Assembly (NCBI GenBank): GCA_000002435.2
Contig: CM018792.1
From: Giardia intestinalis
Taxonomy: Eukaryota
DNA length: 64,000 bases
Strand: one strand, 5' to 3'
The notes beneath the pieces were generated by a model. That model saw only the letters and a list, made by a program, of their open reading frames with translations, made no database searches and was not told where the DNA came from. This document shows positions 15,039-54,544 of the stretch, piece by piece (positions within the stretch are counted from its first letter, which is position 1; every line of letters begins with the position of its first letter). The position numbers and the translations under genes were made by a program.

Positions 15039-18000
15039 ATGAGCAAAGAGAAACAAGACAAACAAGGTTCTGATATTAAATCGACGGCAACTCTCCAGCT
15101 GTCGATCTCTTTTAATCTTGAGGCCTCGTTTCTTCCCTTCTCAAGTACTCTGCCAGTCCTGCAGCTCATAGTCCCAGGGGTCTCACCTATTTCCCTACCC
15201 TACTATACCATCAACGGAGAATTTCCTCCTGAGCCAGTTGCCAAAAAAGAGCCCAGTAAGAAAGAGCCTGTGCCCGTCGATCAGGGTGCTGACATCAAGT
15301 TGGTAGAGGCCATTTTCAAAGAAATAGACATACCTAATCCACTTGGGCTTGTTCAGCAGTTTTTAACTAACCCCATAAAGCTTATGCTCAGCAGTCCCCT
15401 CGCTTCAGATAAAGAAAAAGACCAAGATAAAACGTCATCGTCTCTCTTGCTTCCAGCATCTATACTTCTCGTTGATCTACCACTAAAGACTTCCTTTTGC
15501 CTCCTATCATCTACTTTACCAGATCTGCGTCTGGATGGCTTCCTCCGGCTTTCAATCTTACGAGCATCTCATGTTTCCAAGGATTCTACACAAAGATTCA
15601 TATCCTTTCTTCCCCGTGCCATTACAGAGACAACGCTAAACGTATTCGTGATTCGTATCCTCTCTTTTAAAGGTATACCCCTGGTGGGAGATCTGAACTA
15701 TCGCACAGCATTCTTTGAACCAATAAAGCTCTCTCTTACTATCTTCGGCACGACATACTACTCTGATTCAATATCACATGAGCTTTTAGGAGGAACACAG
15801 AACCAGCTAACTACGAATACAAGTCAGGGGATAAGCATGCAGTACCTGCAATCGGATGAAACAGCCGTAAACCTGTGCGTTGCAAAGGCATTTACCACCA
15901 CGGATGAAATTGCACAACTATATGCCGAACTTGCCACTACTCCGGCAACTGTTGAGCTTTTTTACAAAGCCAAACCTAAACGAGAAACCCCAGTCAACCA
16001 ACAACCCAACTCTGGAAAGGAGGCCAAAGCCACTCCTGCCACTACCACCAAGAAACTACCGTCCAAGCCCAAAGAGGACGATGAAGACACTCGAGAAGAT
16101 GATTTCTTTTCGTTCTCAGTGATAGCTGAGATCAATCTGGTTCCTCTAACCGAGGATGATAGAGTTCTTGACACAGTTGTTAGCCTCAAGCCCGTATTTA
16201 AGTATAAAATAACACAGGTTCCCGATTTGTCTAAAGTAGCTCTCCGCCACATGGAGTGCTCCTCCACCATAAATCAGGCATGTCCCATACCTCAAACTCT
16301 GGCTTTGGGATCATGGAACGATGCCAGCATTAAGGTGCAAGCCGCCACTGCTAGCCTTTTAAAGAAGAACCCTGTCATTAAAACTTCAGAACCAAGACTA
16401 GCCGAGCAGCAAAGCACTTCTATGCAACACTTTGAACGGGCATACTTCTATCTCAAACCGAATGACCTGTACATAGCGAGCATTGTTCTTTCGTATGTAG
16501 CTCAAAAGAACATTAATGCAATTAGGCTCTTCAATCCGAAACTAGCAGAACAATTTGAGCACCCGGATACTCGAGTGGGGCAGAGCGCGAAACACACGAG
16601 CGCAGAGAAAGCGATAGCAGTTACAGATAGCACATCTGTAGAAGAAATCGCTGCATCATCCGTTCTGTCCAGAGAAGATACACAGGAGTGGCTCTCCCAG
16701 TGTGCATCCTCGTTAAAAGTCTTAGCAATTAAAGACGTACGGGAAAAAATAGGCTCAACAAACACCTGCGATAGCATTAAAGCGCCCTTTATTACGGGCT
16801 GGCACTTCTCAGATCCAAGCTTTCAGCTTATATGTTTAGAAGCCCCCGCATGCTACGGTTTGATAATGCCTCTTGCGCAGAAGGTTGACAGCTTGACCAA
16901 GTTACAAGTTGATATGCCAACGGACAGCCTTATCTCTCCATGCACTAAGTGCGGTCCAAACGTCAAGTTCGATAGTAGACTTATGCCAACGTCATCTCTG
17001 CTTTTAGAGAGGTTTTGCTTTGTTAACGAGATACAGGCCCTCGCTGAGAAATCATCCTCTTGGACAGCAACCACAGCGACCGCGCAAAACAGACGCGCGC
17101 TGGCCACTATGCTGTCTCTATTCACTTCATTGAAGATTGAAGGGGAGCCTATGCATGACCTCCTGGGAAAAGTTGTAAAACGATGTTTCAGAATAGAGTA
17201 TACTCCTGTCCCAATGAATATGAGACAGATTGCTGCGCTAAAGGCATTTTTGAATGACCGTGACATTCAGAGCTTGAAGACGTGGATTGGAGGAGTTCTC
17301 CCACAGCATATGAGAACCATCAGCCTTCTTTCTTATAAAGATGGTCCTGTTGTTCCCTTGGTTAATGCACCAGATGACATGATGGCCAAAAGCGGTTCAT
17401 GGGGCGTTGGTACCAGATCTGTGTCTCAAAGGATCAGGCCTCACGGCATGTGTGATACTGTATCAATAAATATGTCAATAATGGGAACAGGCTTGGATGA
17501 GATTGCCAATTACAGTGCAACACTTGCAGCCACCGCCCACGAGGCCTCAGATCTCCTTCGTCAGAAAGATGCCCATGGAATGAAGGAACATAGGCGTGCC
17601 GCATCATCTACAGATGCTAATTTGGCGTCAAGCACTCTATTGAGCCTCACCAAACGCATGAAGTATGAACTGAATGGGGACGACGAATCTGGCCTGCATG
17701 GCAATGTACAACCTCTTAACACTAATGAGGAGCAGATTGTTAATCAAATAATGAACAACAGTCTTCTCCCAGAGCGCTCGCGGACAGCAGTTTCAGATGC
17801 TGTGGCTGGGAGGGTGAAGTTTTCGTATTCTAATCAAACACTGGGGATCAAGAACCTTCAGAGCAAGGCTAGGGACCTTATAGTAGCATCTGGCAAAGGT
17901 AAGGGTCACAAGATTCCTCTATGGGAAGGGTACCGTGACCCCAAGTTGCCGCACTTGTCTCGGTATTCAACAAGGGGCTCAAAAGAGTATGAGCTTGAAA

Positions 18001-18941
18001 AGGGCTACGTACTCACGCCCAATTTAAAGTGCAAACCCTTTGAGCACAGCGGTCAAAGTTGGCGCTCAGACATGAAGACAGCAATAGATGACTACAAGAA
18101 GGACGACCTGGCCGTGCCCTGGGACGAGGACACTGTGCAGAGGATGCTTCTAACACAGCATGTAGCCGCAGACATGAAGCCACCGGAAGGAAAGCCTGTC
18201 TTTTATACCCATTCAAAACCAATCAAATATTTTGACCAGGACAAGGAGCGCATGGGCTCAGTGATTCGCGACGATGCTGACTATAGAGAATATTTAAAGA
18301 AAAAGGAGCGGCAAGAGTGGAAGGAAAAGATAGTGGTTGATCACACGCACATTAATTTGCCTAAGGTTAACAGAACAGATACCCAGGGGCGTCTAAGGTC
18401 GAGTATCTCGCATCCAATACTACAAGATGAGCCCAGGAAATACTCACTGAAGATTGTTAATGGTTCAGGAAGCCTCAGCAAAATACCTGCTACGCTCACT
18501 CAAGAGCCATGGACAGACCCCGCCAAAGGAGACTATGCCGCGTTACTGGAAAAGTCTCGGCCAATCGGCTTGAAGAAGGCCAGTGACATTCACCCTTCGC
18601 TAGTCGAGGAGGTGGCGGCAATTGCACGAAGCAGCCGCTTGGTGTTCAAGTCTCGAGAGGAAGCAGATACCATGTCAGAGGAAGAAAAGAAGCGGCGTCG
18701 CGCAGAATTGAGGCGAGAGGCCACTGCTCAGCTGATGTTGAGGATGCGGTCACTAACACAAAAAGAATCTGAAGGGATTGACACTAATGAGCTCATCAAA
18801 ATGGCCAAGCAAATCATCAGTAAAAATGGAGAAGTGCAATATGACCTCAACCTAACACAGTTCAGTAGATATTCCGGCTTGCATGCAATAGATCTTATCG
18901 ACCGAACACCAAAAGTTATGGCTAAGCCAGTCAATTATTAA
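15039..18941 (+). CDS. Large hypothetical protein (1300 aa)
   Basis: ATG at 15039. 3.9-kb intron-free ORF with low-complexity Ser/Thr/Lys-rich stretches. No family recognised. Confidence 0.6.
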   Translation: MSKEKQDKQGSDIKSTATLQLSISFNLEASFLPFSSTLPVLQLIVPGVSPISLPYYTINGEFPPEPVAKKEPSKKEPVPVDQGADIKLVEAIFKEIDIPNPLGLVQQFLTNPIKLMLSSPLASDKEKDQDKTSSSLLLPASILLVDLPLKTSFCLLSSTLPDLRLDGFLRLSILRASHVSKDSTQRFISFLPRAITETTLNVFVIRILSFKGIPLVGDLNYRTAFFEPIKLSLTIFGTTYYSDSISHELLGGTQNQLTTNTSQGISMQYLQSDETAVNLCVAKAFTTTDEIAQLYAELATTPATVELFYKAKPKRETPVNQQPNSGKEAKATPATTTKKLPSKPKEDDEDTREDDFFSFSVIAEINLVPLTEDDRVLDTVVSLKPVFKYKITQVPDLSKVALRHMECSSTINQACPIPQTLALGSWNDASIKVQAATASLLKKNPVIKTSEPRLAEQQSTSMQHFERAYFYLKPNDLYIASIVLSYVAQKNINAIRLFNPKLAEQFEHPDTRVGQSAKHTSAEKAIAVTDSTSVEEIAASSVLSREDTQEWLSQCASSLKVLAIKDVREKIGSTNTCDSIKAPFITGWHFSDPSFQLICLEAPACYGLIMPLAQKVDSLTKLQVDMPTDSLISPCTKCGPNVKFDSRLMPTSSLLLERFCFVNEIQALAEKSSSWTATTATAQNRRALATMLSLFTSLKIEGEPMHDLLGKVVKRCFRIEYTPVPMNMRQIAALKAFLNDRDIQSLKTWIGGVLPQHMRTISLLSYKDGPVVPLVNAPDDMMAKSGSWGVGTRSVSQRIRPHGMCDTVSINMSIMGTGLDEIANYSATLAATAHEASDLLRQKDAHGMKEHRRAASSTDANLASSTLLSLTKRMKYELNGDDESGLHGNVQPLNTNEEQIVNQIMNNSLLPERSRTAVSDAVAGRVKFSYSNQTLGIKNLQSKARDLIVASGKGKGHKIPLWEGYRDPKLPHLSRYSTRGSKEYELEKGYVLTPNLKCKPFEHSGQSWRSDMKTAIDDYKKDDLAVPWDEDTVQRMLLTQHVAADMKPPEGKPVFYTHSKPIKYFDQDKERMGSVIRDDADYREYLKKKERQEWKEKIVVDHTHINLPKVNRTDTQGRLRSSISHPILQDEPRKYSLKIVNGSGSLSKIPATLTQEPWTDPAKGDYAALLEKSRPIGLKKASDIHPSLVEEVAAIARSSRLVFKSREEADTMSEEEKKRRRAELRREATAQLMLRMRSLTQKESEGIDTNELIKMAKQIISKNGEVQYDLNLTQFSRYSGLHAIDLIDRTPKVMAKPVNY

Positions 18942-21900
18942 AGGAATAACCGAAAACTCCGAAAAGAATAACATCGTTAGTGCTCTTTTTTATGGTCATA
19001 GTTTGGGCAACAATAGGCTCTGAAAGTTGGTCCAGCTGGACAACAAGTGGCTTTTTGCTGGTAATCCGTATTTCACGCTGAAGGCAATCATTTGCGGCTT
19101 TTAAAGCGCCTGGAAGCACGCACTTCTTAACAAGTTCGCTGGGAATGTATTTCAATGTTTCCTCAAAGTCTCCATCAACCCTGGCAGATGGAAGACGAAT
19201 ATATGGCTGGAGAGAGACTTCTGGTCTTAGTATTATGTCGCTCGTCTTGGCCTTTATTCCGATAAAGGTATGAAGATACTGCTCCTGAACGTACTCGTCT
19301 GAAACAGGTATCTGGCACGGTTGCTCGGGATTATGTGCAGGGACAAGGCTTGTGTTACTATTTGTTTTTGAGTGTCCGCTGAAAGTGGTAGAATTAGCTC
19401 TTTGCCTGGTCTCGCGGGTTATCTTAGCGTTGCTCCTTCTTATTGATAGTTGGATGTTCAATCGCTTGGACTTAGGTGTTTTTGTAGGGCTAGTAGCCCC
19501 CTGTGCAGAGTTAAGAGAAGGCTTGTTTTCTAAGGTTGTCCTAGCACTCTCGAGGTGTTGCAGGAGTGTCGCTTCGGGCACGGCACTTGTTCCTGTACAA
19601 GTAGCCATGTTATGAACGTCGGTGGTCGACGTGCTTATACTAGTGCATGACTGGACCTCTGATTGCGTTTTTTCCTCGGGAAACGTGCTTCTCCAACCCT
19701 TGACATTTTGGGACTCAGAGTCCTTATGCGATATCTCACAATCTTCCATCGTAGACGATTCGGCTAGTACAACAGTTGTAGGCTTTATCTGTCTAGTACC
19801 TAGGTCTATTTTTAGCTCACATGGCCTATTTTTCTTGGTAATAGAACTTTGGTTTGCAGTAGTAGAGATTGATGCCTGCTCAGTGAGTCTAGAGGAGTGT
19901 TTTGTAGATGTACTACGGCGGTGTGAAAGCTTTTCGTTTCGATCTGTCGTGGGATTCTCTTGAGCTAGCGAGGGATTTGTGTACCATTTATAGTCATCTC
20001 CAGAAGGGGATGCACAGTACTCTATTTTTGGCATTGGGATATTGCCCTGCTTGTAAAAGTGATAATACATGTAGTTGTATACGCATTTGCAGGCCTTTAA
20101 TGCACACAGAAAAGGGTTTGTAGAAGCTATCTCTATAGTACGCCAAGTGTTCAGTATGTGCAAGTTTCTGAGGGTCAATGTTTTGCCTTTTTTACTGTCC
20201 TTAATTGGAATTCCGCCAACAACTATTTGCAGTTGTACGTCTAAGAGGTTGCTAGCCTCCACATATGAATCTGATATGTATTGTCCAATAGATATAGATC
20301 CCCAGCATGTAGCTGTTCTATGCTTCTTGTCTGTGTCAATCTTGAGATTCTTATTCTTTCTATTCGCCTTCTTGGGAGTCTTTGGCTCTGTATTATGCTC
20401 TGTCAGGATGTGGCGTGACAAGAGTAAGTCCTTTGTTGCGTGATTCTCCTGAGATAGAATAGATCTGTTGCTGGCGTGCTTAATTGAGAATAAGTTCCTC
20501 CTTTCATCTACCTTTAGGGCATCTATAGATGGAGTAATTGAGGGTGTCTCTGATAGCAGCATCCGAGATATTTCTTGAAGTCTGCTTCTGTCCTCACTTG
20601 AAGGGTAGATGAGATAAAGTGGTGCGCGCAATATCCTCTCAGATGGTAGTACTTCTGTATGGACCACCATGGCAGCCAATGGAATAACGGATTGCGCTCT
20701 AAGATATGTCTTAATGGCTTGATTTATCACTAACTCGAACGTCTTTATGGATCGCAAGGTGACGCTAGAGGTTAAATCTGTCTGTGAGGGGCTGTCTATA
20801 GTAGTTGCAGCACCTGAATTCAATGTAAGTGTGAGATGTTCTTGGACTGGTGTTGACACGGTTAGTGGGCCAAATGCAAGTGAGACTGCAGTGTTCCCAT
20901 GTACAGGAGTGCCTTGGAGTCTTTTGCTATTCAATACAGTGGTGGTATGGGCACTCTGTTGAGTGGACATAGAGCCTGTAAAAAGACATAACCATGATAG
21001 CATACCGCTACAATAGCACTGGGTGATAGCTAGCCATGCTGGTGTACCGAATAGCTTTTCGTACAACGCATCCTTAGTCGATAGAATGTCATCTATAGAC
21101 CCCTTTGCGATACAGGTTACAATCTGGGCAACAAGACCCAGAGACGTAGCCCGCGCTCCGTCCTTACAGACCTCATCAAAAACTTCTGCGTGTGCAGCAG
21201 AAGGTACCGGCACGGGGTAAAGTACCATGGGGTGCAAAGTTGTCAGAGTAATATCCGCAAGGGTGGCGCATGCCCGCAATAGCTTGACACCCTTTGAAAG
21301 AACTGCTCCTAAGGGTGTTTTTTCACTGATAAACACGGACAGCTCCTCAGTGTTACTGCACGGGAAGACGTTTTGATTGTAGGAAGAGAATATCTTGTAT
21401 ATGCTTGAACTGTGAGCATCGTCAGGACTCGTTAGCAATAAAACATGAATACCCTTCTGCATAACAGATGCAATGGCCGGAATCTTATATGCATTGAGGT
21501 CCCCCGACTCAGAAATATAGATGTTCCCACCTTCCTCGATCGACGCCGGGTCAGGACCATATCCTAACTCGTCTAGAACGTTCTGTAAGGAAAGAGAATT
21601 AGCTGCACGTGTGACGCTGTGAACGTTTTGGTATCTATTGTGGTTTGACAGTTCTTCTTGAAAGACATGCCCTTCGATGTTCTTAAGGTTAAAAAGAACA
21701 GACGTCAACGATACCTTTTGGTTTTTAACTCCTTCTATGAGCAATTCTGTATTGTTATCGGTAGATGCCTGCAGCAGCTGATTCCCCTCACCAAAAGGGT
21801 TTTTGAGGCCAATATCTTCTTCAAATACAGAGGTGGTGCCCTTCCTTCCATCGCAAAATGCTGCGAACTGTTCAAAACCGCCGTCTTCAGTCTTGCAGTT

Positions 21901-24249: not shown

Positions 24250-26730
24250 ATGTCCGAGGAAGGCGCTTTGATGGAGCGGTTTCGAAACTCCTTGGCTAGT
24301 GGAAATTCTAAGGAGTTAACTCAGATATGCGAGGAGGCAGCGAAATCCAAGGTCTGTCTTAAGGCTCCCGAACGCATAGTCACTGAGAACGCAACGTCCA
24401 AGCCTTCTCCAGAGGAACTGAGGATCTTGTTTACTAATATTGCAGCGGGAAATTATGAGGCATGCAAGCAACAGAGCGGTGCGCTTATCTGCTCCTGGCA
24501 AGGAAGGACTCCGCTCATGTGTGCAGCGGAACATGGACATGTGGATCTAACCAAGCTATTTCTGTCTCAGCTAGGCTGTGTCTCAGGAGATATGGCAAGA
24601 CGCACTGCTCTTCAGTTGGCTTTGATAAACGGGCATTCAGCGCTCTTTGTATATTTACTCCCGGAACGCGGGATTCGTGGAATATATGGCCGCACAATGC
24701 TTCATCTAACTGCATCTATGGGGGTTTCTACGTGGCTAAACAATTTCACAGCCTATCTCGGCGAAACAGACGACGATGAAAACACAGCCTTGATGCTAGC
24801 AGCAACGAACGGTCACGCGGCATGTGTGGAGCAGCTACTTACAGAGCTAGGAGAGGTAAATACAAATGGTGACACTGCGTTGTTGCTTGCAATGAGAGCA
24901 AGAGAGCGTAGCTGTGTCAAACTGCTAGAAGGAGAAATAGGGATCGCGGGCGTAACTTCTCTAATGTATACTGCTTCCTTAGGAGATGCGTCCACGCTAT
25001 CCCAGTTTCTCAAGGAGCGAAAAGCCATCGCTCTAATGGGTCGCCAGGATAACCAAGGACGCACAGCTCTAACCTATGCTATGGAGGCAGGCATACCCAT
25101 TGATACATGTGTTCCCTTATTAGCGAAAGAAGAGAACATCCCGACGGCGGATGGCTCACTTCCCGTTCACATTGCTGTGAGACGCGGCCTCTCGGACTAT
25201 TTGAAACGTCTACGCCATCAGCTCGTGATTCCTGATAACACAGGAGACTACCCTTTATCTGTAGCTGCACGCTATTGCTGGTGTGACTCTCTTGTAGAAC
25301 TGCTTGACCTCAAAGAGAACGATGATACGGAGTCTTCACCTATTCATCTGGATCCCGTCATCTTGAGTACTGCTATAGACGCCGCTATCAAACACATATG
25401 TCGTCTCGCGCTCCCTATTCTTACTGCACATGTTATCAAGTACAACTTGCTAGGACGCGTGTCTGTGCAGAGACGCACTGGGGTCCATGTTCTATCACCA
25501 ACAGATCTAATGAAGAGTGCTGCTAAGGGTAACACGCATGGTGTTCTGGCTAATCTGCACAAGATGAACTGTATTTACGAAGATAAAACCGCTCTGATGA
25601 TAGCAGCAGCCGGCGGGCATCACGAATGCGTCAAGCTCCTACTATGCGAGTTAGGAATAGTAGGCAGCAATGAATTAACAGCTCTTGACTATGCGTGTGA
25701 ACATGGATACCTAGGATGCATAGAGCAGCTGTCTCCAGAGTATTCATTGATGTTAGGGAAACCCTTGTATCATGCGGCCATTGGAGACTATGACTGGATC
25801 AAGAGGCATATTAAATCCGTATATAGATCCACTGTCCTATTCAGAACTCCTCTTATGTGCGCCGCAGCATGTGGACAAGACAAAGTTGTGGCAGAGCTTA
25901 CTGAACAGATTGGGATGACAGATTCACTGGGCTATACTGCGCTAGGCATAGCAGCCCAACGAGATCAGATGTCAGTCATCCCTATTCTTACTGACGAGCT
26001 TTCTTTATCGCAAGCAAATGGTATGTCTGCTCTTATGGTCGCGTGTAAGTATGGGTGCTATAGCTCCGCCGAGGCGCTCTTTTCTCTTTACTATCCTAAT
26101 AATAAAGCTGATGCATTGATTGGTAACGGTACTGTACAAGCCCTTGGACATGTAAGACGTGACTCCGATGGTAAGACCGCTTTGATGTACGCCACCATAT
26201 CAAGAAAGCGCCTCCTTGTCCGCATGCTACTTGGAGTAGAGGGTGGCTTGCAAGATAATGTTGGAATGACGGCGCTTATGTATGCAGTTCGCTACGGCTG
26301 CAAGGAATGCTACGAACTTCTTATAACATGCCAGGCTGAAGTCAAGCACCGGAACAACAAAAAGGAAACAGCTCTTATATTAGCAATTAAGCATAAGCGT
26401 GATCTTGCTGTAACGTTACTTGGACCAATAGAAGGGACCGAGCGAGACAGCGCTTCAAGAACAGCACTTATTTTTGCTACCGAGAGAAATAGAAAAAGAT
26501 ATATAAGAGAGCTATGTCCGCATGGTGAAGGCTCAGTGGATGAGCACGGAAACAGTGCCCTATCTATTGCCATCAAAAACGGACTTGTCACTATAACTCG
26601 ATGTTTGGTTCACTCCTCTTTAGAGTGTGCAGTTGCAAAGAAGATCATTGCAGCTTTAGAAAATAACCCACAAAACAGCAAAATAACGGCAGACTGCTTA
26701 AGAATACTAAATGAGCACACTGATCCTTAA
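24250..26730 (+). CDS. Ankyrin-repeat protein (protein 21.1 family, 826 aa)
   Basis: ATG at 24250. Many ankyrin repeats (GRTPLMCAAEHGHVDLTKLFL, NTALMLAATNGHAACVEQLL, etc.). Confidence 0.85.
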   Translation: MSEEGALMERFRNSLASGNSKELTQICEEAAKSKVCLKAPERIVTENATSKPSPEELRILFTNIAAGNYEACKQQSGALICSWQGRTPLMCAAEHGHVDLTKLFLSQLGCVSGDMARRTALQLALINGHSALFVYLLPERGIRGIYGRTMLHLTASMGVSTWLNNFTAYLGETDDDENTALMLAATNGHAACVEQLLTELGEVNTNGDTALLLAMRARERSCVKLLEGEIGIAGVTSLMYTASLGDASTLSQFLKERKAIALMGRQDNQGRTALTYAMEAGIPIDTCVPLLAKEENIPTADGSLPVHIAVRRGLSDYLKRLRHQLVIPDNTGDYPLSVAARYCWCDSLVELLDLKENDDTESSPIHLDPVILSTAIDAAIKHICRLALPILTAHVIKYNLLGRVSVQRRTGVHVLSPTDLMKSAAKGNTHGVLANLHKMNCIYEDKTALMIAAAGGHHECVKLLLCELGIVGSNELTALDYACEHGYLGCIEQLSPEYSLMLGKPLYHAAIGDYDWIKRHIKSVYRSTVLFRTPLMCAAACGQDKVVAELTEQIGMTDSLGYTALGIAAQRDQMSVIPILTDELSLSQANGMSALMVACKYGCYSSAEALFSLYYPNNKADALIGNGTVQALGHVRRDSDGKTALMYATISRKRLLVRMLLGVEGGLQDNVGMTALMYAVRYGCKECYELLITCQAEVKHRNNKKETALILAIKHKRDLAVTLLGPIEGTERDSASRTALIFATERNRKRYIRELCPHGEGSVDEHGNSALSIAIKNGLVTITRCLVHSSLECAVAKKIIAALENNPQNSKITADCLRILNEHTDP

Positions 26731-26734
26731 GCAC

Positions 26735-27757
26735 CTACTGAAAGTGGTGACCGTGTCGATATAGTATTTGGGTAACAGCTTCCTTCACGTCTGAAAAGAC
26801 CATCATTGGCATATTTTCTGCACCCTTTTTGATATCCTTCAGGTCTCCTTCGTGTGCTTGCCCAGTGAGGACAAGAACAGACACCCACCCATCCATTTTC
26901 CTCCTGTTTGCTCCGGTAACATCTGACGTAAGGCTGTCTCCAATCATATAAATGGTTCCTGAGTTGAGCCGCTTGTGAGCTTCATTAAAGATTGGGCTAT
27001 GCGGTTTGCCCAAATAGTGAATTTCTAGATCATTCACGTTCCTGATCTGCTTGTAGACCTCGCAAGTCGAAACCAGAAGGCTTCCAAGAGTAAGTCGTGG
27101 AATAACGTAGCTTCCTCCGTATGTTATGTCTGGGTTGCCCACATAAATGGGAGGCAGCAGAGAGCCATTGGAGACATCACCCGAAACAGACCCATTTCGA
27201 AGAAGCGCTTCCAACACCACTTGCATGTCGAGATACCAAGTATTGCTATCGTTACAGAAGAAAACCTCATCCACGTGAGTGGGGAAGTCATCAGCAAAGG
27301 TGCTCACAGGGAAGTCTGCGTCGGTCACTTGGCTCTCCTTGAGCCACTGGGCATATTGACCTTCGATGTCACAGTACCCCTGAATAATCCCAGTGTTAAA
27401 GCGCCTAACAACTTGCATTGTAAAAACACAGTTCCTATGCCCGGACTTCTTTATAATTGGGAGGGACAGTTTGGCGGCTCCGACGATCAGGACAACGGTG
27501 TCCTCGGAGCGACTAGAGAGGTAGTCCAGTGCCATGCTTGCAGTATTCACGACCTGCGATGGCGCAACCTTGTACCCGAGGATATCTTCCACTTCGCGGA
27601 CAAGCAGTTCTGGAAGAACGCCGCCATTGGAAAGAAGGACGTATGGGATGCCATTCTTATCCAGTGTGTCCAGTGCCTCTCTCGCGCCGGGTATGGGATG
27701 CCTGTCTCGACGTAGAACACCGTCCATGTCTAACGCAAATGCGACGTCTGTGGGCAT
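26735..27757 (-). CDS. HAD-superfamily hydrolase, subfamily IIA (CECR5/HDHD5- or PGP-like)
   Basis: Motif I FALDMDGVL (DxDGV) near the N-terminus, a GKP motif with the conserved Lys, and motif IV GDSLTSDV. The track start (27772) is a TTG; first ATG at 27757. Confidence 0.7.
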   Translation of the reverse strand: MPTDVAFALDMDGVLRRDRHPIPGAREALDTLDKNGIPYVLLSNGGVLPELLVREVEDILGYKVAPSQVVNTASMALDYLSSRSEDTVVLIVGAAKLSLPIIKKSGHRNCVFTMQVVRRFNTGIIQGYCDIEGQYAQWLKESQVTDADFPVSTFADDFPTHVDEVFFCNDSNTWYLDMQVVLEALLRNGSVSGDVSNGSLLPPIYVGNPDITYGGSYVIPRLTLGSLLVSTCEVYKQIRNVNDLEIHYLGKPHSPIFNEAHKRLNSGTIYMIGDSLTSDVTGANRRKMDGWVSVLVLTGQAHEGDLKDIKKGAENMPMMVFSDVKEAVTQILYRHGHHFQ

Positions 27758-27829
27758 CACAAGCAGAGCCAACTTAAAATAAATGCCCTTTGGAGAAATC
27801 CTGACGTTTCCAAGGACGTCCGAACCGTT

Positions 27830-29650
27830 CTAGAAGAGCGATTTACTCCACCCGCTGGTTACTTCCAGTGCTCTTCCGGGCTGTGCTGCCGGCGGAACCC
27901 AGCAGCCCAGAGTAAACCCCTCATTTTCCTCACACGCTCCGGGACACCAGACTGCTCCATAGGCCGCCGGCCACGCTGGAGTGCCCCGAGGCGGCCCAGG
28001 AGAGTGCGTGTGCTGATAGCTTGTCCGCCAGACCCTCCTAGCAGCAGAGCGCCGTCGCGGCAGGAGAGCATGCCCCTTGCATCGGTCGGTCGGTTGCTGA
28101 GACCCCTGGTGCTCTGTCTGGAGCGGAGACTGCCCTGAGGGCCCTGTACGCTGCTCCCCTGCACCGACTGGCACAGCAGGGGGGCTGGATGCCGAGGGGC
28201 ACCTCCAGAGTCTCGGGTCTCTACAGGACAGGACACACGGCAGGGACATCTGCATGCGGGCCAGGAGTCCTGCTCGGCCCGTCCCTCGGCTGACGCCTTG
28301 GCCCCTCGGGAGCCCTGTCAGCACCACCGAAGGCAAGGACTCTCCAGGAGCGTTGGACTGGGCCCGCATGGAGTGGATGGCCCCACAGCCACTGCACGGG
28401 CCTCTCGGGCAGGGGGTCTCTCTGCCACTGCAATCTGTAGCAGCGTAAGGGTCGCCCCGTGTGCTGCCCTCTTGCCGTGGCGGGGCTTCAGGCATGCCAT
28501 CGGGACTGTCCGACGGTCACCGGTTGGGCCCTGTGTGACAGCAACAGACGAGAAGACTGTCCCACAACGACATGCCCTCGCTGGAGGACTGTCAGCAGGG
28601 CGGGGGAAGCTGTGGCCCACTGGGGGAGTGAACGATCTCAGTGGGTCCAGGCGCACTGCACTGCGGGCCCCGTCGGGCCGGTCTCTGACGGGCGCCGCGA
28701 TCACTCTGCCCGGTCTGGCAGATCACGAGGGGTCTGAGGCCGGTCTGTTGGGAGGAGAACCAGGGCCCTCGCTGATGGTCGAGCAGAGTCACCACAGGGG
28801 GGCATGAGCTCGAGTGAATGAGGGCCCTCTTAGCAGCGCGCATGTCAACCGAGCGAGGAGAACGACATGGCAGACACCAAAGGAGCCATGACCTCCTGAG
28901 CCCTCTGAGGTTTGTACTAGGCTCGCTGGGCTTATCAATCTCAGGCTCTGGTTCGCTCGAGTGAGCACTGCAAGGGTGAGAAGGGAACCTAAATGGAGAT
29001 AAGCCTCCACAAGTGGCGGACAGAGTATCTGTGATCGACACTTGCCACTGATGCTGTCTGGCAACTTGGCTTTGCAGAGGCCCATTGAGTAGGCACTCCA
29101 GGCAGTAACAACGCAATCAGCTAGCCACTGTCTTAGACTGCTCTTGGAGACCTGCAGCGAGGAAAGGCGAAGTCCCTAGAGCTTGTTGATGCAGTGCCAG
29201 AGCTTATGCTCTTCTTCGATGATCTGCTGAGGCTATCTCAAAGGTTCCAAGACTGTGGAGAGGGAAGCTTGATAGTAGGAATTCATAATCACTGCTGCTC
29301 AGGACCCCGTAGGCCCTCCTCTCCAGTCATGGCGAGCTGCTGGGCCCTGAGAACGTCGGAGGGCCTTGCCGATGTGCATGGGCGGTGGGCAAGAGGATCC
29401 CCAACGTATACAGTTCACAGGAGCTGTTTTACTACAGGCTGTCAGGCTTCTTCCCCGACATCACGAGATTTTTGAAGCAGAGGCCCGGCAGGAAGAGGGT
29501 GGTGATAAGATAGCCAGGTTTCCAGCAGTGCAACAGAGAAGACCCTTGCTCTATCAGCGACGACTCGCTTCTGTTTCCGGACACAATCGAGCATTGACTG
29601 AAGTTACTCACGGGATCCTTGGGGTGTGCTCGTAGGCAAGGGTCCTAGCA
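27830..29650. other. GC-rich island with no dominant ORF (about 1.8 kb)
   Basis: Sharp rise in GC. Only short overlapping Pro/Arg/Gly-rich ORFs in all six frames, as expected for random high-GC DNA. No ankyrin, VSP, kinase, reverse transcriptase or rRNA motifs found by eye. Confidence 0.5.
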
Positions 29651-29908
29651 GCACAACGCTGAAGGTGACTGGTAGATGGAGTGAAGAAGTCCGAAGCCCT
29701 AGTGCCCACCCTGCACTGGTGCCCAGCCGGCTACAACCCCACAATTGAAGTCATCTCTCGTTGGGCACTTGCCACACAAGGCAAGAAGGGCAGAGGGAAC
29801 CCAGGGCGTACAATCTGTGTTTGGTGCGCTATCTGGATGATCTGTAAACAATACCGTGAATCGCAAGTTTACCAGTACACGCGTTTCCTTTGTGACCATG
29901 GAATAAAA

Positions 29909-30580
29909 ATGTCGTCTACAGATGATTCGGATCACTGCTCTCAGGAGTGCGACCGTACCTTGCCTCCTACGCCCGAGAATGACACAGACGATGAGTATAT
30001 GAGTGAAGACATTCCCACCGAGTCTTCAGAGATGGATGGTGAAGATGGCATGGACGAGGACGGCGTCACTGAGCTCATGAAGGCGGCCAGACGAAACGAC
30101 GTAGATGCAGTGAAGCGCTATATTCCTCAGCAGGCGGGAATGGTGGCGAAGTTTTTCAAGGCGGGAGGCGTAAATATATATGAAGGGACAGCCCTGATGG
30201 TCGCCGCGGTGCTTGGACACGCCGAGGTGGTGAAGCTGCTGATGAAGCACGAGAGTGGAATGATGAGCAGCGATAAGCACACCGCCCTTATGTGGGCGGC
30301 AGTCAACGGTCATACTGAGGTTGTGAGGCTACTCGTGGAGGTTGAGGGCGGCATGAAGAGGAGCGAGGGCTGGACTGCTCTCGTCGGTGCAGCATCCTTT
30401 GGCCATTTGGAGTGTGTTAAATTACTGCTAGAGAAGGAGAAGGACGTAGGCGGCGAGGTTGCCCTCTACATGGCTAGTACATGGGGTAACTCCGAGGTGG
30501 TGTCTTTTCTCAAAAGTAAGGGTATTGTAGATCCATACTTACAAATGTTGTCCAGAAAGGCCGTGAGTGAACGCGCTTAA
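29909..30580 (+). CDS. Ankyrin-repeat protein (224 aa from ATG 29909; the track start 29681 is a GTG inside the GC-rich island)
   Basis: ATG 29909 is preceded by gaataaaaATG. Acidic N-terminus followed by ankyrin repeats (GTALMVAAVLGHAEVVKLLMK, HTALMWAAVNGHTEVVRLLVE, GWTALVGAASFGHLECVKLLLEKE). Confidence 0.75.
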   Translation: MSSTDDSDHCSQECDRTLPPTPENDTDDEYMSEDIPTESSEMDGEDGMDEDGVTELMKAARRNDVDAVKRYIPQQAGMVAKFFKAGGVNIYEGTALMVAAVLGHAEVVKLLMKHESGMMSSDKHTALMWAAVNGHTEVVRLLVEVEGGMKRSEGWTALVGAASFGHLECVKLLLEKEKDVGGEVALYMASTWGNSEVVSFLKSKGIVDPYLQMLSRKAVSERA

Positions 30581-30885
30581 CTGTTGATCGAGTTTGATGA
30601 TAGATCGGATTCCCCTCCAGCTGTGCAGCAAACAGACACCTCAATGAAGTGGTGGCTGTCAGTGGGGCACACAGCCACCCATTTCCTCAGAGGCCAGGGG
30701 AGCAGGCCTTCTCACCCTCGGTCAGCACTGCAATACTAGGGGTGGGTGAAACGGTCGCACAGGTGGTCTTCTCATCTCTTATGCAGAAGCCCTTCGTAAG
30801 CATTGGACCACTACAGATCTGTAGACACAAACCTCTGTGGAAACGGATCGTTTCCAAAACGGTAGATTACCAAAATAATACCAGG

Positions 30886-33131
30886 ATGGACACTTCCTCG
30901 TCTGAGCCTGCAACTGTGGCTCTCAGGGTCCCACTGTTCACCCCTAGGGAGCTTCATGAGCGGTTAGGTGATGGGCTTAATGAAAACACCATGGGGACAG
31001 TCTACTCTCTCAAGGGCTATCCAAACCTCGCTGTGCAGGAGATCCTCCTCGATGGCCTGGACAAGGGGGATCTGGACACCATCAGACTAGAGCTGGCCAC
31101 CCTTCTCGACCTCTCCCATCCGAGGGTCCTCAAGCACCACCAAGTAGTCGAGGACGAGGGCCTCATCTACGTCGTCACGGACCGGCACGACAGGACCCTC
31201 GAGCGCCTCCTCACCGAGCACAAACGAAGGAAGATCCCCGTGTCTGCCGGCGTGATCCTCTCCGTCATGAAACAGCTCGCCGCCGCCCTCGCCTATCTTC
31301 ATGGTCTCAGCGGGGTAGGTGCTAATGGGCTTGTCCACTGCGACCTCAGGCCTGCCAACGTCCTCATCAGCGCAGACGGGGAGCGCTTCGTCATCGCCGA
31401 CTTCGGCCTCTGCAGAAACACATTGTGGAGTGAGAGCACCATTGCAGGCATGGCAGTATACATGGCCCCCGAGATGCTCCTCCACAACGAGCCCAGCCCC
31501 GCCTCCGATGTGTGGAGCCTCGGGGTCATCCTCTACGAGATGGCCACTCTGAGGAGACCGGACTTCCTGAAAGGTAAAGACCCAAAAGACGTCTTCGTCG
31601 ACAGGTGGAGGCCGGACCTGAGCAGTGTCACCGATGGCTTCATAAAGAGTGTTCTGGAGAGGATATTCGTGCTGGAGCCAGAGGAAAGACTGACAGCCAG
31701 GGAGCTGCACGAGACGCTCACTGCGGCTGACATCCCAGTTGGTGAGCTGGGGGCTCAGTACGCGATGCTGAAGTACGAATGCGGATCCCTGAAGGCCGCT
31801 CTGAACAGTGCTAACGCTAGGATTGCTACTCTTGAGGCAGCCCTCGACGCCAGGTCTACTGAGATGGTGTCTCAGTCAACCGAGACTGCCTCTCTCAAGG
31901 ACGCACTTGAAGATCAGTGCAAGGAGCATCTGGCCATGATTAAGGCACTAGAGAATAGATTCACAGAATTTAGTGGTGGGATGAACACGAGTAGCTCCCA
32001 GATCAACCTCTCTGCGCTGCCTCAACTGATCCGTGCTGCACACACGAATAACATGGAGACTGTCCGGATGCTGGCTAACAAGAGGAACTACATCGGCCAG
32101 CGCGACGAGCAGGGGATGACGGCCCTCATGCACGCGGCCCAGCAGGGGCACATCGGTCCTGTCGAGCTGCTTGTTAGAAAAGAGAGGGGTCTCAAAGATA
32201 AGAGCGGTTGGACCGCGCTCATGCACGCTGCACACGGGAACCACCTTGAGGTAATTGAGATTCTCATCCCTTATGAACATAGGAAGAGGAGCAAGAATAA
32301 CCACACTGCCTTGATGATCGCCGTAAAAAAGGGCCACATAGAAGCTGCCTCCCTTCTAGTCTCATATGAGAAGAACCTGATCGACGACGAAGGCAAAACG
32401 GCCTTGGTGATTGCGGCAGAGGCAGGACATGAAGCTCTGATGGAGACCATCGACCCAACCGATGACAGGGGCGTCACGGCGCTCATGCGAGCCGTTGATA
32501 GAGGTGATATGGCAACAGCAAAAGCGCTTGTGGCTCTTCAACGAGGACGAGTGGCACATGGTGAGACGGCGCTAATGCAAGCAGTCACGTACGACAATAT
32601 AAATGGGATAAAATTATTACTGCCACATGAAAGCGGTATGCATGATAGATATGGTGCAACCGCCCTCATGAAAGCTGCCTATAAGGGTTACTTAGAGGCA
32701 GTAAAGTTATTAATAAAAAAGAAAGTGGGATGAAGGACAATTATAACAGGACTGCGCTCATGGAAGCGGCGGCTAGGAATCATTTGGAAATAGTTATAAT
32801 GTTAATAGAATATGAAGCATGCATGAGGGATAGCTTTGGGGAAACGGCCCTTATGAAGGCTGCTTCGAATGGTCATTTGGAGGTAGTTGAGCTGTTGATA
32901 GAATACGAAGCTGGTAAAAATGATGACTCTGGAGAAACAGCCCTTATGAAAGCCGCCCTCGGGGGCTATCTGAAGGTAGTCGAGCTGCTATTTGAAAGCG
33001 AGGGGTATCTAATAGACAAATCTGACAAATCCTTCTTTGGTAAGCTTGAGGCTAAGGGCTACTTTGAGATAGTATCTTTCCTTAGGGACAGCAGTAGAAC
33101 ATCTAGCACCGATGGCTACAGTTACTCTTAG
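30886..33131 (+). CDS. NEK-type kinase-ankyrin gene (NEK1 copy), split by a -1 frameshift in an A6 run at 32723-32728 (ORFs 30886-32733 and 32730-33131)
   Basis: Kinase subdomains present: HCDLRPANVLI, DFG and APE, followed by coiled coil and ankyrin repeats. Start placed at ATG 30886 by alignment with the paralogue at 60860 and the AT-rich taccaaaataataccaggATG. Adding one A in ttaataaaaaagaaagtgggATGaagg restores the expected ankyrin linker LLIKKESGMKD. Confidence 0.75.
31018..32074 (+). repeat. Segmental duplication / gene-conversion tract, copy A (pairs with 61001-62057)
   Basis: 31018-31077 identical to 61001-61060. A diverged 48-bp patch follows. Then 31126-32049 is identical to 61109-62032 (924 bp), with a single difference at 32050. 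Confidence 0.8.
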
Positions 33132-33930
33132 ATTACTTTACGGCTCACGAGTAAATCTGTCGTTCCCTCAAGAGAAGCAGAAGGCCCTGGAGAACAGGCT
33201 GGACTACGTCAGGGCCCACAAGGCCGTGGACGCAGGCCAGAGGGACGCAGACGGGAAGACGGCGCTCATGTGGGCCGCCGAGGCCGGGCACACCGCCGTC
33301 GCCCTGGAGCTGGTCGACGCAGAGGCGGGCCTGGTCTCGAACGACGGGTCCTTCGCGCTGATCGCGGCGGCAAAGAGGGGGAACCTCGAGCTGATCCAGG
33401 CCCTTTTCGAGAAGGAGGGGAGGCTGCGGGACGCCGGCAAGCTCTCCGCCCTCAACCACGCCTCCAGGGCGAAGCAGTTCGAGGCGGCCAAGGTCCTCCG
33501 GCTGAAGACCATCGAGACGATGGACGCGGCGATGCTGGAGCAGCTCCGGCAGAGGGTCGCGGCCACCTACACCGAGATGGCCAAGAAGTCGCAGCAGGCC
33601 GAGGTCAAGAGCCACAACATGGCCATCTTCCGCTCGTTCTTCGAGGCGTTCTACTCCCTCTCCTGCTCGGGGATCGACCAGGGGGCGGAGATCTCGGAGG
33701 AGCAACTGAACAAGTCCCTCGAGAAGTGCCTGGGCGAGATCCGCAAGCTCCTCAACTCGAAGAAGTACACGAAGTGCGTGAAGTGCCGCGCCAACGCCCC
33801 CAACCTGGTCTGCATGCCGTGCAAGCACTACGTCCTCTGCAAGGACTGCGGGAAGGACGTGGCCAGCGAGGTCTGTCCTGGTCTGCGAGAACCCCCTTGG
33901 CACACTAGTAGATCCTCAAGGTATCGCTAA
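33112..33930 (+). CDS. GC-rich ankyrin-repeat protein with coiled coil and a C-terminal RING-like (C3HC4-type) zinc finger that lacks its last Cys in frame
   Basis: Ankyrin repeats (DGKTALMWAAEAGHTAVALELV, FALIAAAKRGNLELIQAL). Finger: CVKCRANAPNLVCMPCKHYVLCKDCGKDVASEVCP-GLREPP. Composition switches to about 65% GC from ~33170. The start overlaps the end of the previous ORF by 20 nt in another frame. Confidence 0.55.
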   Translation: MATVTLRLLYGSRVNLSFPQEKQKALENRLDYVRAHKAVDAGQRDADGKTALMWAAEAGHTAVALELVDAEAGLVSNDGSFALIAAAKRGNLELIQALFEKEGRLRDAGKLSALNHASRAKQFEAAKVLRLKTIETMDAAMLEQLRQRVAATYTEMAKKSQQAEVKSHNMAIFRSFFEAFYSLSCSGIDQGAEISEEQLNKSLEKCLGEIRKLLNSKKYTKCVKCRANAPNLVCMPCKHYVLCKDCGKDVASEVCPGLREPPWHTSRSSRYR

Positions 33931-33937
33931 GGCATAT

Positions 33938-34381
33938 GTGGGGGTGGATGGCTGCTCAGCATGTACAGCCCCGACAGCTCTGACAACAGCTGGCATGACT
34001 GCTGCTATATGCACCTCTTGTGATAACAGTAAGAAGCCCAACAAGGGTGGCAGTGGGTGCTTCACATGTGCTATCGATGGATGCTCGCACTGCAACAGAG
34101 ACAACATGTGCGAGGCATGTAATGATGGTAAGAAGGTGAGCCCTGGGAGGAAGTCATGCGTGGATGGCTGTCCCAGCAACTCCACTGACACCGACTCTGT
34201 CTGTGTGTGCAGTGATGGGTACAGTCTAGACAGCAGTGGGGCCTCCTGTGTGTCCTCTGGCGCCAACAGGGGCGGGCTCTCCACGGGGGCCATCGCGGGG
34301 ATCTCCGTCGCCGTGGTCGTCGTCGTGGGGGGCCTCGTGGGCTTCCTCTGCTGGTGGTTCGTGTGCAGGGGGAAGGCGTGA
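33938..34381 (+). pseudogene. VSP C-terminal relic (CXXC motifs, transmembrane segment, CRGKA tail); no ATG or signal peptide
   Basis: Ends ...[17 protein letters not shown]. The track start is a GTG. The frame is open upstream into the RING-finger ORF. Confidence 0.7.
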
Positions 34382-34395
34382 CTTAGATAATAACC
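34381..34395 (+). promoter_or_regulatory. Degenerate extended VSP poly(A) signal (ACTTAGATAATAACC)
   Basis: Overlaps the TGA. One mismatch (TAGT to TAAT) against ACTYAGRTAGTRAAY. Confidence 0.5.
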
Positions 34396-34675
34396 GCATC
34401 AAGAGATGTGCTGATAGCTTCCTGGGTCCTGATTCGCCAAGCACTGGGTAGTATCTAGCCGAAGGTCTCAAAAAGAGACAGACCCGCATCAGACGAACGA
34501 TAGTACCAGAGGGAGGGAGCTAGGAGTGCCTCCATCAGAATAAGCAGGACAGCCTTGTTAAGACAGCGTAGCTAACCAGTTATTCGCCTCTGTGCAACAA
34601 TGTCATGCGAATCTTCACTTTTTTATGACATGACATACAATTTATTATTGCACTACTTGTAAAGCAATTAAAAGG

Positions 34676-36121
34676 ATGGACTCGATTGAAGAGAAAACGG
34701 CCGACTCTGTGACCTGCCGCTTTGTCACCCAGCTTCCCATAGAGCTACAAATCGACGACGATGAGTATGCCATTCCTACCATGGCGACTCGACTGGAGTT
34801 ATCTCAGCTTATTAATACCTTAATAGGGCGCCCACACCCCCTTGCCTTTGACTTCTTGGTGAATGGCTCATTTATGCATACAGCACTTGGTGACCACTTG
34901 CTCCTAAATGAGATAAGCTCCGAACAGGCCTTGACGATAGAATATATCTTGGCACAGCTTCCTCCCTCTGATAAGTACACCCTTAAAGTGAGCGACTGGG
35001 TTTCCACAATCATTCCATCGATGAATGATTACTTTACCCTGCCTAAAGACATTAAGGATGCTGCTTTAGCATCTCTGTATGATGGATCCTTGGTGCTCTT
35101 CAACTTTGCCAGCCAAGATCAGGCAGATGATTATGACAGCGCCGATGAGCTGGTTGGTACACGACACCAAGTGTGCAAGCTATTCAGCACCCCAATAAAA
35201 GCTACCTGTCTTGTGAAGATCAACGATCAAATGCACGTCGCGGCTGGCGGATATGAGGGACGGATACTATGTTCTACAATCTCCGAGACTGATGCATCAT
35301 TCACACAAGAGGTCGAATATACCAATCTGAATAGCCCCATTCTCTCTCTGGCAAGCAACACGTCACTCTCCTACATGGCGGCGGGGACAGTCGACGGTTT
35401 GGTTTATCTCTATGATATAGCAAACACGCAGCGAGCGACAGAACCGATGGTAATGCAGGTAGAGCCTAGACCTAAACGCAAGCGTATCCACGGCAATACA
35501 ATAATCAAGACAGCCACAGAGCGCCTGTCCTTTTTGTTTCACTCGGTGCAGACGTCGGAGGCCCGTGCACACGACCCTTTCACAGTTGCCACAGATATCA
35601 ATAGCGTGACCTTCAGCAATGAGCATAATAGCCCTTATATTGCAGCTGGCTGTGCGGATAACTGCATCCGGTTCTATAATATCAAAAAGAATGCCCCAGC
35701 AGGACTCATATCCACAAATTCTTCCTGCCAAGTTCTGAAGTACATGAAGAGGTCTGACGACATGCTCCTCTGTGGCTTCAATAACAAGCTACTAAGGCTC
35801 TATGACACTAGGAAGGATAAGCCACTTGTGTCAACGTTCACAGGCCACAAGTCGTCCCTAACATGCTTAGATGTTCGGGATAACATGATCATTAGTGGGT
35901 CTATAGGCGGGGATCTGTGCGTATGGGATCCTAGGTCGTCTGTCCCGCTGTGGGTTGGAGATTGCTTTTATAGGAAATTGGAGCACAAACGGGATCAATC
36001 CCGATTACTTTCATGTGCCTTTGCGGTCAATGCATTGGCTCCTGTATTCTATCATGGAGGAAGCGACCGTCAGATAACGATGCGGAAGATAACAGACCCG
36101 CTTGCCCTTTCTCGAAAGTAA
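34676..36121 (+). CDS. Ribosome-biogenesis WD40 protein, WDR12/Ytm1-like (N-terminal NLE ubiquitin-like domain plus WD40 repeats)
   Basis: The N-terminus (VTCRFVTQLP...LSQLINTLIG..PLAFDFLVNG..LTIEYI) matches the NLE domain. DWVSTI follows, and WD repeats end in ...GSIGGDLCVWD. ATG at 34676 after attaaaaggATG. Confidence 0.6.
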   Translation: MDSIEEKTADSVTCRFVTQLPIELQIDDDEYAIPTMATRLELSQLINTLIGRPHPLAFDFLVNGSFMHTALGDHLLLNEISSEQALTIEYILAQLPPSDKYTLKVSDWVSTIIPSMNDYFTLPKDIKDAALASLYDGSLVLFNFASQDQADDYDSADELVGTRHQVCKLFSTPIKATCLVKINDQMHVAAGGYEGRILCSTISETDASFTQEVEYTNLNSPILSLASNTSLSYMAAGTVDGLVYLYDIANTQRATEPMVMQVEPRPKRKRIHGNTIIKTATERLSFLFHSVQTSEARAHDPFTVATDINSVTFSNEHNSPYIAAGCADNCIRFYNIKKNAPAGLISTNSSCQVLKYMKRSDDMLLCGFNNKLLRLYDTRKDKPLVSTFTGHKSSLTCLDVRDNMIISGSIGGDLCVWDPRSSVPLWVGDCFYRKLEHKRDQSRLLSCAFAVNALAPVFYHGGSDRQITMRKITDPLALSRK

Positions 36122-51223: not shown

Positions 51224-51293
51224 GAAATAGCAATTATTTTATTCCCTTTACTCCGCAATACCATTACCTTTCAATAAGGCGTCTAACCCGGCT

Positions 51294-51460
51294 GTGAATG
51301 AGGTGAATAATCATAGGATATCATATGAGGAAAATATTGTGGTACTTACTCTTACCGCAATTGCAAAGCGTGGGAGTGTCACAGAATATCCTGATTCCAC
51401 GTATGAGAACGGTGTCACAGCTCTCATAAGAGCTGCAAATAGGGGAGAGTGGAAACAGCA
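51294..51460 (+). pseudogene. Orphan single ankyrin-repeat fragment (...YENGVTALIRAANRGEW...) with no ATG, at the edge of the second GC-rich island
   Basis: GTG-initiated ORF whose only recognisable content is one ankyrin-repeat-like unit. It dissolves into GC-rich non-coding sequence. Confidence 0.3.
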
Positions 51461-54450: not shown

Positions 54451-54544
54451 ATTTATCAAAAGGTAACAGTGGTTTGTCTACAACTTCTGGATTGATTACA
54501 AGCTTAATTGAAGAGAATGATAATCGAGTGTAAGCTTAAACTTA

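Follow-up and report, generated by a model that had tools for sequence, protein, structure and literature searches.

The GC-rich, ORF-poor island at positions 27830-29650 of the window is very probably a non-coding relic that lies at a synteny break associated with VSPs and is put together from two unrelated pieces. The window is the whole stretch of 64,000 nucleotides of Giardia intestinalis DNA that was analysed; exact protein matches assign it to the 2,761,001-bp chromosome of isolate WB, clone C6. The island was compared with orthologous loci, which were retrieved from other Giardia genomes via the protein encoded by the neighbouring HAD-like gene, and with a paralogous locus next to PRP8. 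As judged from these alignments, the left-hand piece (27890-28907) is best read as the non-coding 5' flank that normally precedes a VSP gene, which has been orphaned here.

In the current annotation, the gene-free interval between the HAD-like gene and a gene for a 223-aa ankyrin protein extends from 27758 to 29908 (2,151 bp). An earlier note on this DNA, which placed the ORF-poor island at 27830-29650, was right that the gap is real and contains no gene model, but the true interval is slightly wider. The same note put the GC content at about 62-65%. The island is indeed GC-rich (61.0% over 27830-29650; core 1-kb windows have a mean of 46.3%, an sd of 2.2% and a maximum of 54.4%), but it is composite rather than uniform, with 66.5% GC in 27890-28907 and 53-54% in the rest (53.2% in 28908-29908). 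The two halves differ in origin and are unrelated pieces. The view that intergenic distances elsewhere are 0-140 bp was too strong, as gaps of 330-880 bp are present when ORFs of at least 150 aa are considered, and two further ORF-poor stretches occur at 33931-34675 and 51224-54544. The latter, which the earlier note had singled out for comparison as a second island, is unrelated in sequence to the first. It is non-coding by periodicity (z of about 0) and is located 5' of a VSP, the ORF of which begins at 54545. The sole long ORF of the first island encodes 221 aa on the minus strand (27830-28495); its only remaining record is an old UniParc entry, which forms a singleton cluster. As had been noted, the ankyrin ORF can be lengthened upstream to a GTG start at 29681; in the annotation it begins with the ATG at 29909, which is preceded by the AT-rich sequence GGAATAAAAATG.

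To the left of the island lie a gene for an ankyrin protein (24250-26730; KAE8303727) and, on the minus strand, the HAD-like 'phosphatidyl synthase' gene (26735-27757; exact match to KAE8303728/XP_001709648), which anchors the locus on the left. Orthologues of this HAD gene carry the Pfam domains Hydrolase_6 and Hydrolase_like, and its DNA is 99.4-99.6% identical to that of isolate DH and of two further sequences, L010 and L011. The proximal upstream region of the HAD gene with its AT-rich initiator occupies 27758-27889 and shows 0 mismatches in 132 bp against the same three sequences. Within it, 27758-27832, to the end of which the homology with assemblage E (P15) extends, is ancestral intergenic DNA. 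Then follow, on the plus strand, a shortened copy of the GC-rich non-coding element from upstream of a VSP (27890-28907; approximately the first 950 of 1,397 bp), with an indel segment of about 70 bp at 28693-28762, and region B (28908-29908), the non-coding 1-kb leader of a block of ankyrin, NEK and ankyrin-RING genes on the plus strand. The first gene of this block, Ankyrin repeat protein 1 (29909-30580; 223 aa; exact match to KAE8303729), is 98.7% identical to DH and has a period-3 z of 15. It is followed by a NEK kinase-ankyrin gene (30649-33131), which is a single ORF of 822 aa with Pkinase and Ank domains in DH but frameshifted and split in WB; an exact-protein look-up of the two WB ORFs (30649-32733 and 32730-33131) gave no match. 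An ankyrin-RING gene ('Ankyrin repeat protein 2', 33112-33930; exact match to KAE8303730) ends the block. To its right are a truncated VSP pseudogene on the plus strand (33869-34381) and, as the right anchor, an NLE/WD40 ('transducin') gene on the plus strand (34676-36121; exact match to KAE8303731).

The connection of the island with VSP genes emerged from a protein search with the 221-aa ORF, in which a similar ORF was found on a contig bearing PRP8 and HSP70, i.e. at a different locus. At the PRP8 locus of isolate DH (L017; AHGT01000012.1), PRP8 ends at 16930, and a GC-rich element of 1,397 bp (17018-18414; 68.5% GC) directly abuts the ATG of a VSP gene at 18415. The context of this ATG, CTAATGTTC, corresponds to the PyAATGTT initiator that is typical of VSPs, and the encoded protein of 304 aa ends in CRGKA. 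In the deposited DH gene model, the start has been placed 125 codons too far upstream, within the GC-rich stretch. Window positions 27890-28692 and 28763-28907 align to 17018-17966 of the DH locus at 91.5-92.4% identity, and the homology to the VSP-upstream element breaks off at window position 28907. The element has the properties of a VSP 5' upstream region: it is non-coding, more than one VSP locus carries it, and at the DH PRP8 locus, although not in the window, where the VSP start is deleted, it abuts a PyAATGTT VSP gene. The earlier proposal of a decayed VSP consequently holds for the link to VSP genes, as the flank precedes a VSP at a paralogous locus, but not for the nature of the DNA, which is not decayed VSP coding sequence. 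For the island at 27830-29650, no match was obtained in tblastn searches with P15 and DH VSPs or, in six frames, with the Pfam VSP family (PF03302). A protein search with the translated 3' part of the element (18040-18414 of the DH locus) also produced no match.

Remains of a VSP gene are nevertheless present elsewhere at the locus. The truncated pseudogene retains the 169 codons of the 3' end, among them those for the transmembrane segment and CRGKA, and its stop codon is at 34379-34381. Window positions 33869-34378 correspond to residues 136-304 of the DH PRP8-locus VSP (83.5% amino acid identity), 33890-34389 matches 18841-19337 of the DH locus at 85.6% DNA identity, and the VSP homology begins at 33869-33890. 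The remnant also matches the VSP of P15. The ORF at 33782-34381 ends in ...CRGKA and lacks a signal peptide, the VSP fragment has a period-3 z of 12, and the N-terminal 135 residues of the VSP are absent from the whole window. The CXXC ectodomain, the transmembrane segment and the CRGKA end of Cys-rich VSPs were found in the 33869-34381 fragment and not in the island. Moreover, the last approximately 17 codons of the ankyrin-RING gene read VSP-derived DNA out of frame, and its product ends in ...VCPGLREPPWHTSRSSRYR in place of the ...VCPACNKPVEEFMEVFK of the paralogues. An identical ankyrin-RING/VSP junction is present in KAE8303465 (P0021). The VSP remnant lies about 5 kb to the right of the island and outside it; it explains the island and yet is no part of it.

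Based on the alignments to the element and the VSP at the DH PRP8 locus, the WB locus therefore consists of about 950 bp of the element, a replacement of 4.98 kb and the 3' 169 codons of a VSP. The replacement occupies 28908-33889 and comprises the 1-kb leader, the 223-aa ankyrin gene, the NEK-ankyrin gene and the ankyrin-RING gene. Its leader, region B, contains 7-16 stop codons per frame in WB and 8-17 in DH, and the 63 mismatches between the two isolates are split 20/19/24 by position modulo 3. Region B gave no blastx or Pfam match, and no second copy was found within the window or the fetched loci, the DH orthologue excepted. A transition-biased hypermutation of region B (55 transitions, 8 transversions) was considered and dropped, since transitions predominate in the core genes as well (26 to 1).

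Comparison with other Giardia lineages shows how this arrangement differs from that of its relatives. In three more distant lineages, whose HAD proteins are 76-79% identical to that of WB, the HAD and NLE/WD40 genes are divergent neighbours (288 bp apart in L003, 399 bp in L004 of L004-6, and 649 bp in L007 of L007-9), and the DNA between them has a GC content of 30-42%. These lineages are probably assemblage B plus two others, and as outgroups they display the ancestral state, with HAD and NLE adjacent. In assemblage E (P15), one intact VSP gene of 523 aa lies between the HAD and NLE genes. Its upstream region is AT-rich (41% GC), without similarity to the GC-rich element, and GC-rich flanks are therefore not universal among VSP genes. 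In assemblage A, represented by WB and by isolate DH with the same arrangement, the order between the anchors is the GC-rich element, the 5-kb block and the last 169 VSP codons. Because the nucleotide homology between WB and P15 ends at 27832 and restarts at 34277, the segment 27833-34276 is specific to assemblage A.

These observations are consistent with the following history, although its order, in which the insertion of a VSP unit precedes the replacement, is inferred from present-day structures only. A unit of the 1.4-kb upstream element plus a small VSP would first have been inserted or duplicated between HAD and NLE in the A/E lineage. Ectopic recombination may then have replaced about 450 bp of the element and about 135 VSP codons with the block of leader, ankyrin, NEK and ankyrin-RING genes. 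By this replacement the first part of the island would have been orphaned, and the second part would have arrived as the leader of the block. Neither flanking gene would need the island; both have an AT-rich initiator of their own no more than about 30 bp from the ATG. About 50 nt of upstream DNA has been reported to be enough for the expression of housekeeping genes (bioRxiv 10.1101/2022.03.07.483299). Lastly, repeated gene conversion between copies of the element is probably behind its high divergence; that its high GC content came from GC-biased conversion would be speculation.

The element was found in at least three genomic contexts. It is present at the HAD locus in WB, DH, L010 and L011 and at the PRP8 locus in L012 and DH (L017), and copies from the two loci are 91-96% identical. 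A PRP8-locus copy in WB, too, is suggested by three WB-like unitigs (L013, L015 and L016), which break off 117 nt after the PRP8 stop codon, where they have covered the first 29 nt of the element. The third context, P0104, has a flank without a match to either locus, whichever frame is compared. L010 (ERZ27317378) seems to keep the element uninterrupted past 28907, but this is a metagenome contig that ends inside a repeat and may be chimeric. No second copy of the island was detected within the window by self-BLAST or with an nhmmer profile of the six copies, and exact-pattern scans of JGI metagenome contigs revealed no Giardia copies.

Between WB and DH, the element is about ten times more diverged than its neighbours. 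The divergence amounts to 0.7-1.1% in the flanking core genes, 0 of 132 bp in 27758-27889, 9.0% in the GC-rich element, 6.3% in region B, 9.4% in the NEK gene and 1.2-1.3% in the two ankyrin genes. Among the six copies of the element, 44 informative sites define 16 different bipartitions, and just 3 sites separate the two loci. This mosaic pattern of variants suggests that sequence has been exchanged between the loci. One could argue from these data that the element is a module that functions in cis at VSP loci, such as an epigenetic control region or a hotspot of recombination or gene conversion, of which the orphan copy is still active. Indeed, at the DH PRP8 locus the element accompanies a VSP and directly adjoins its initiator, and upstream regions have been speculated to control vsp expression (PMC2996952). 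Moreover, the orphan copy still seems to exchange sequence, given that the divergence steps from 0/132 to 9% exactly at the left edge of the element and that its variants are mosaic between the loci. However, mosaicism requires sequence homology alone and not function. No conserved motif or structure was found in the element, and its copies tolerate many indels as well as the presence or absence of the segment of about 70 bp. In addition, the VSP of P15 at the HAD-NLE locus has an unrelated AT-rich flank, and the element is known from three contexts only, with the search with its 3' part having matched nothing. We therefore regard a functional module as unlikely. We attach a similarly small likelihood to the idea that the element might serve as a homology platform, which would target VSP loci for inter-locus gene conversion even after its own VSP has been destroyed. 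If true, this would account for the step from 0% to 9% at the edge of the element, for the mosaic patterns and possibly, through GC-biased conversion, for its GC richness, and the element would then be a cis element that helps to diversify the antigen repertoire of Giardia.

It is very doubtful that the island, rather than being relic DNA, encodes an antisense or other long non-coding RNA, or a transcript that is processed into small RNAs for VSP silencing. This possibility would be in line with the fact that the island adjoins VSP-derived sequence and that Girep-1, another VSP-linked sequence in the window, is transcribed from both strands in Giardia (PMC1950533). The searches for RNA genes, however, lent no support to the ncRNA locus that had been proposed in the earlier note. 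Rfam 15 gave nothing on the island, either at the gathering score or at E≤1, and ARAGORN identified no tRNA. No match to SSU, LSU or 5.8S rRNA was found either, and the ORF search was free of rDNA-like high-copy matches. In an RNAalifold consensus fold of the six element copies, only 1 of 267 predicted pairs is compensatory and many pairs are broken; the covariation term contributes -0.95 of -340.9 kcal/mol. Furthermore, the island is without the VSP-coding similarity that could permit antisense targeting. As for structural features, the island has neither terminal repeats nor any meaningful repeats within it, be they direct, inverted or tandem, and no canonical G-quadruplex motif occurs anywhere in the window.

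Evidence for a coding past of the island was equally absent. The period-3 z is 0.1 for the WB element (27890-28907), -0.2 for the full DH element and -1.2 for region B (28908-29908), compared with 6.7 to 35 for seven genuine coding segments including the VSP fragment. Numerous frameshifting 1-nt indels distinguish the five to six copies of the element, and no frame is open in all of them, and the lengths of the ORFs in the element are as expected for DNA of 66% GC. Six-frame translations of the island had no Pfam match at E≤1 and, therefore, none to a reverse transcriptase or a VSP. With phmmer, the 221-aa ORF retrieved from 1.84 billion representatives only copies of the same DNA and low-complexity noise, and blastx of the island against every ORF in the window and in the fetched loci returned only its own orthologues and paralogues. 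The decayed gene and the retroelement that had been put forward as candidates thus find no backing in these results. Accordingly, although there are long ORFs on both strands, CENSOR has identified transposon relics in some VSP upstream regions (bioRxiv 10.1101/2022.03.07.483299) and retroelement-derived sequences lie at some WB/P15 synteny breaks (PMC3091692), we consider it most improbable that the island is a gene or retroelement so long decayed that its coding signal has faded, be it a VSP, GilD/Genie-2 or a GC-rich gene obtained by horizontal transfer.

Relic VSP-flanking DNA, the reading that we prefer, fits well with what has been described for Giardia. A usual feature of vsp genes is 'an extended noncoding region upstream', some of them have near-identical upstream regions according to earlier work, and truncated vsp pseudogenes exist (Adam et al. 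2010, PMC2996952). The 2-kb regions upstream of VSP genes average 53.9% GC, compared with 45.2% for coding genes, and upstream sequences can be common to groups of VSPs (bioRxiv 10.1101/2022.03.07.483299). Like these 5' flanks, the element is non-coding, unusually long for Giardia, higher in GC than the genome average and common to VSP loci, with a position directly 5' of the PyAATGTT VSP start at the DH PRP8 locus. It differs from them in that its GC content of 66-68% is well above the reported average of 53.9%, and in that the copy in the window is orphaned; as its last approximately 450 bp and the 5' half of the VSP are gone, it now faces an ankyrin gene. The fragment at 33869-34381 resembles the truncated vsp pseudogenes of Adam et al. 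(2010) in retaining the 3' end with CRGKA without a signal peptide or an initiator. VSP, Protein 21.1 (ankyrin) and NEK genes are over-represented at synteny breaks between WB and P15 (Jerlstrom-Hultqvist et al. 2010, PMC3091692), and the assemblage-specific segment 27833-34276, with its ankyrin, NEK and VSP-derived sequences, likewise splits collinear core genes. Unlike for the published breaks, the breakpoints are here resolved to the base and the ancestral state is visible in three outgroup lineages. Dispersal as a repeat, possible degeneration and occurrence at some synteny breaks are also traits of the GilM, GilT and GilD (Genie) non-LTR retrotransposons. In its protein-level signals and its distribution, the element differs from these by the lack of any reverse transcriptase or endonuclease signal, the lack of coding periodicity and its presence in only about three contexts, two of which are VSP-linked. 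The island is apparently an ordinary relic of a kind that has already been described, although this particular instance seems not to have been.

For the annotation of the genome, our findings indicate that the gap at 27758-29908 was rightly left empty and that the old 221-aa ORF is spurious. The same applies to the 125 extra residues at the N-terminus of the VSP model for the DH PRP8 locus. With regard to genome evolution, the locus would show how a VSP locus was built and then destroyed: adjacent housekeeping genes acquired a VSP gene and its flank between them, and an ankyrin/NEK block then replaced the 5' half of the VSP. The mosaic structure and the raised divergence of the orphaned flank provide a small hint that VSP-flanking DNA may take part in ectopic exchange, which bears on the evolution of the antigen repertoire.

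A tandem array of 26 perfect copies of a 222-bp unit occupies window positions 54604-60366 and lies within ORFs on both strands. Since both published Girep-1 primer sequences were found inside the 222-bp unit, the array is the transcribed repeat 'Girep-1' described by Chen et al. 2007 (PMC1950533). In the current annotation, the array is part of a surface antigen (VSP) of 1,983 amino acids (KAE8303742; ORF 54545-60496 on the plus strand), and the strand opposite this ORF is also open, with an ORF that is nearly as long (54496-60435, minus strand). Just 3' of this VSP, a second stretch of the window resembles a VSP C-terminus (60547-60787). VSPs of the assemblage E isolate P15 and of isolate DH used as tblastn queries gave matches at 60547-60768 and 60673-60768, and positions 60627-60787 match the DH PRP8 locus (L017) at the DNA level. 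This stretch is probably another truncated VSP fragment.

On the other side of the Girep-1 VSP, a second ORF-poor island separates it from the CTP synthase gene (51224-54544). Its GC content is 57.5% overall and 62-67% within 51.4-52.6 kb; codon periodicity is absent from this island (z ~0), and no sequence similarity was found between it and the first, gene-free island. It looks like another extended non-coding region upstream of a VSP gene. At the edge of the window, a fragment of the large-subunit rRNA (model positions 1891-2507) occupies 63537-64000 on the plus strand, beginning 92 bp past the NEK kinase gene (60860-63445) and continuing beyond the window end. Apparently, an rDNA junction adjoins the window.

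VSP sequence also contributes to the ankyrin-RING protein, the C-terminus of which reads ...VCPGLREPPWHTSR. This ending (window 33869-33930) is VSP sequence read out of frame, and it takes the place of the RING C-terminus ...VCPACNKPVEEFMEVFK. The same chromosome of WB encodes another paralogue (KAE8303465) with this altered ending, and the ankyrin-RING/VSP junction is therefore present at two WB loci. The NEK-ankyrin gene of WB (30649-33131) is broken into two ORFs (30649-32733 and 32730-33131), where DH has a single ORF of 822 amino acids. Between WB and DH this gene diverges by 9.4%, as compared to only 1.2-1.3% for the ankyrin genes on both sides.

For the DH VSP at the PRP8 locus (L017, AHGT01000012.1), the called start is a GTG within the GC-rich non-coding element, 125 codons 5' of the real ATG at 18415, where a VSP initiator and a signal peptide are present; the wrongly included stretch is L017 18040-18414. 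A segment of ~70 bp within the element (window 28693-28762) is carried by the WB copy at the HAD locus and is missing from DH at both loci and from the HAD-locus contigs L010 and L011. The PRP8-locus metagenome contig L012 begins within this segment and holds at least its first ~24 nt, and the presence or absence of the segment does not follow locus boundaries. Short-read contigs from many samples (L010 to L016) end at the edge of the element or within it, stopping at the equivalents of 28907-28918 at the HAD locus and 57-117 nt beyond the stop codon at the PRP8 locus. In practical terms, these contig ends indicate that Giardia assemblies break at the element.
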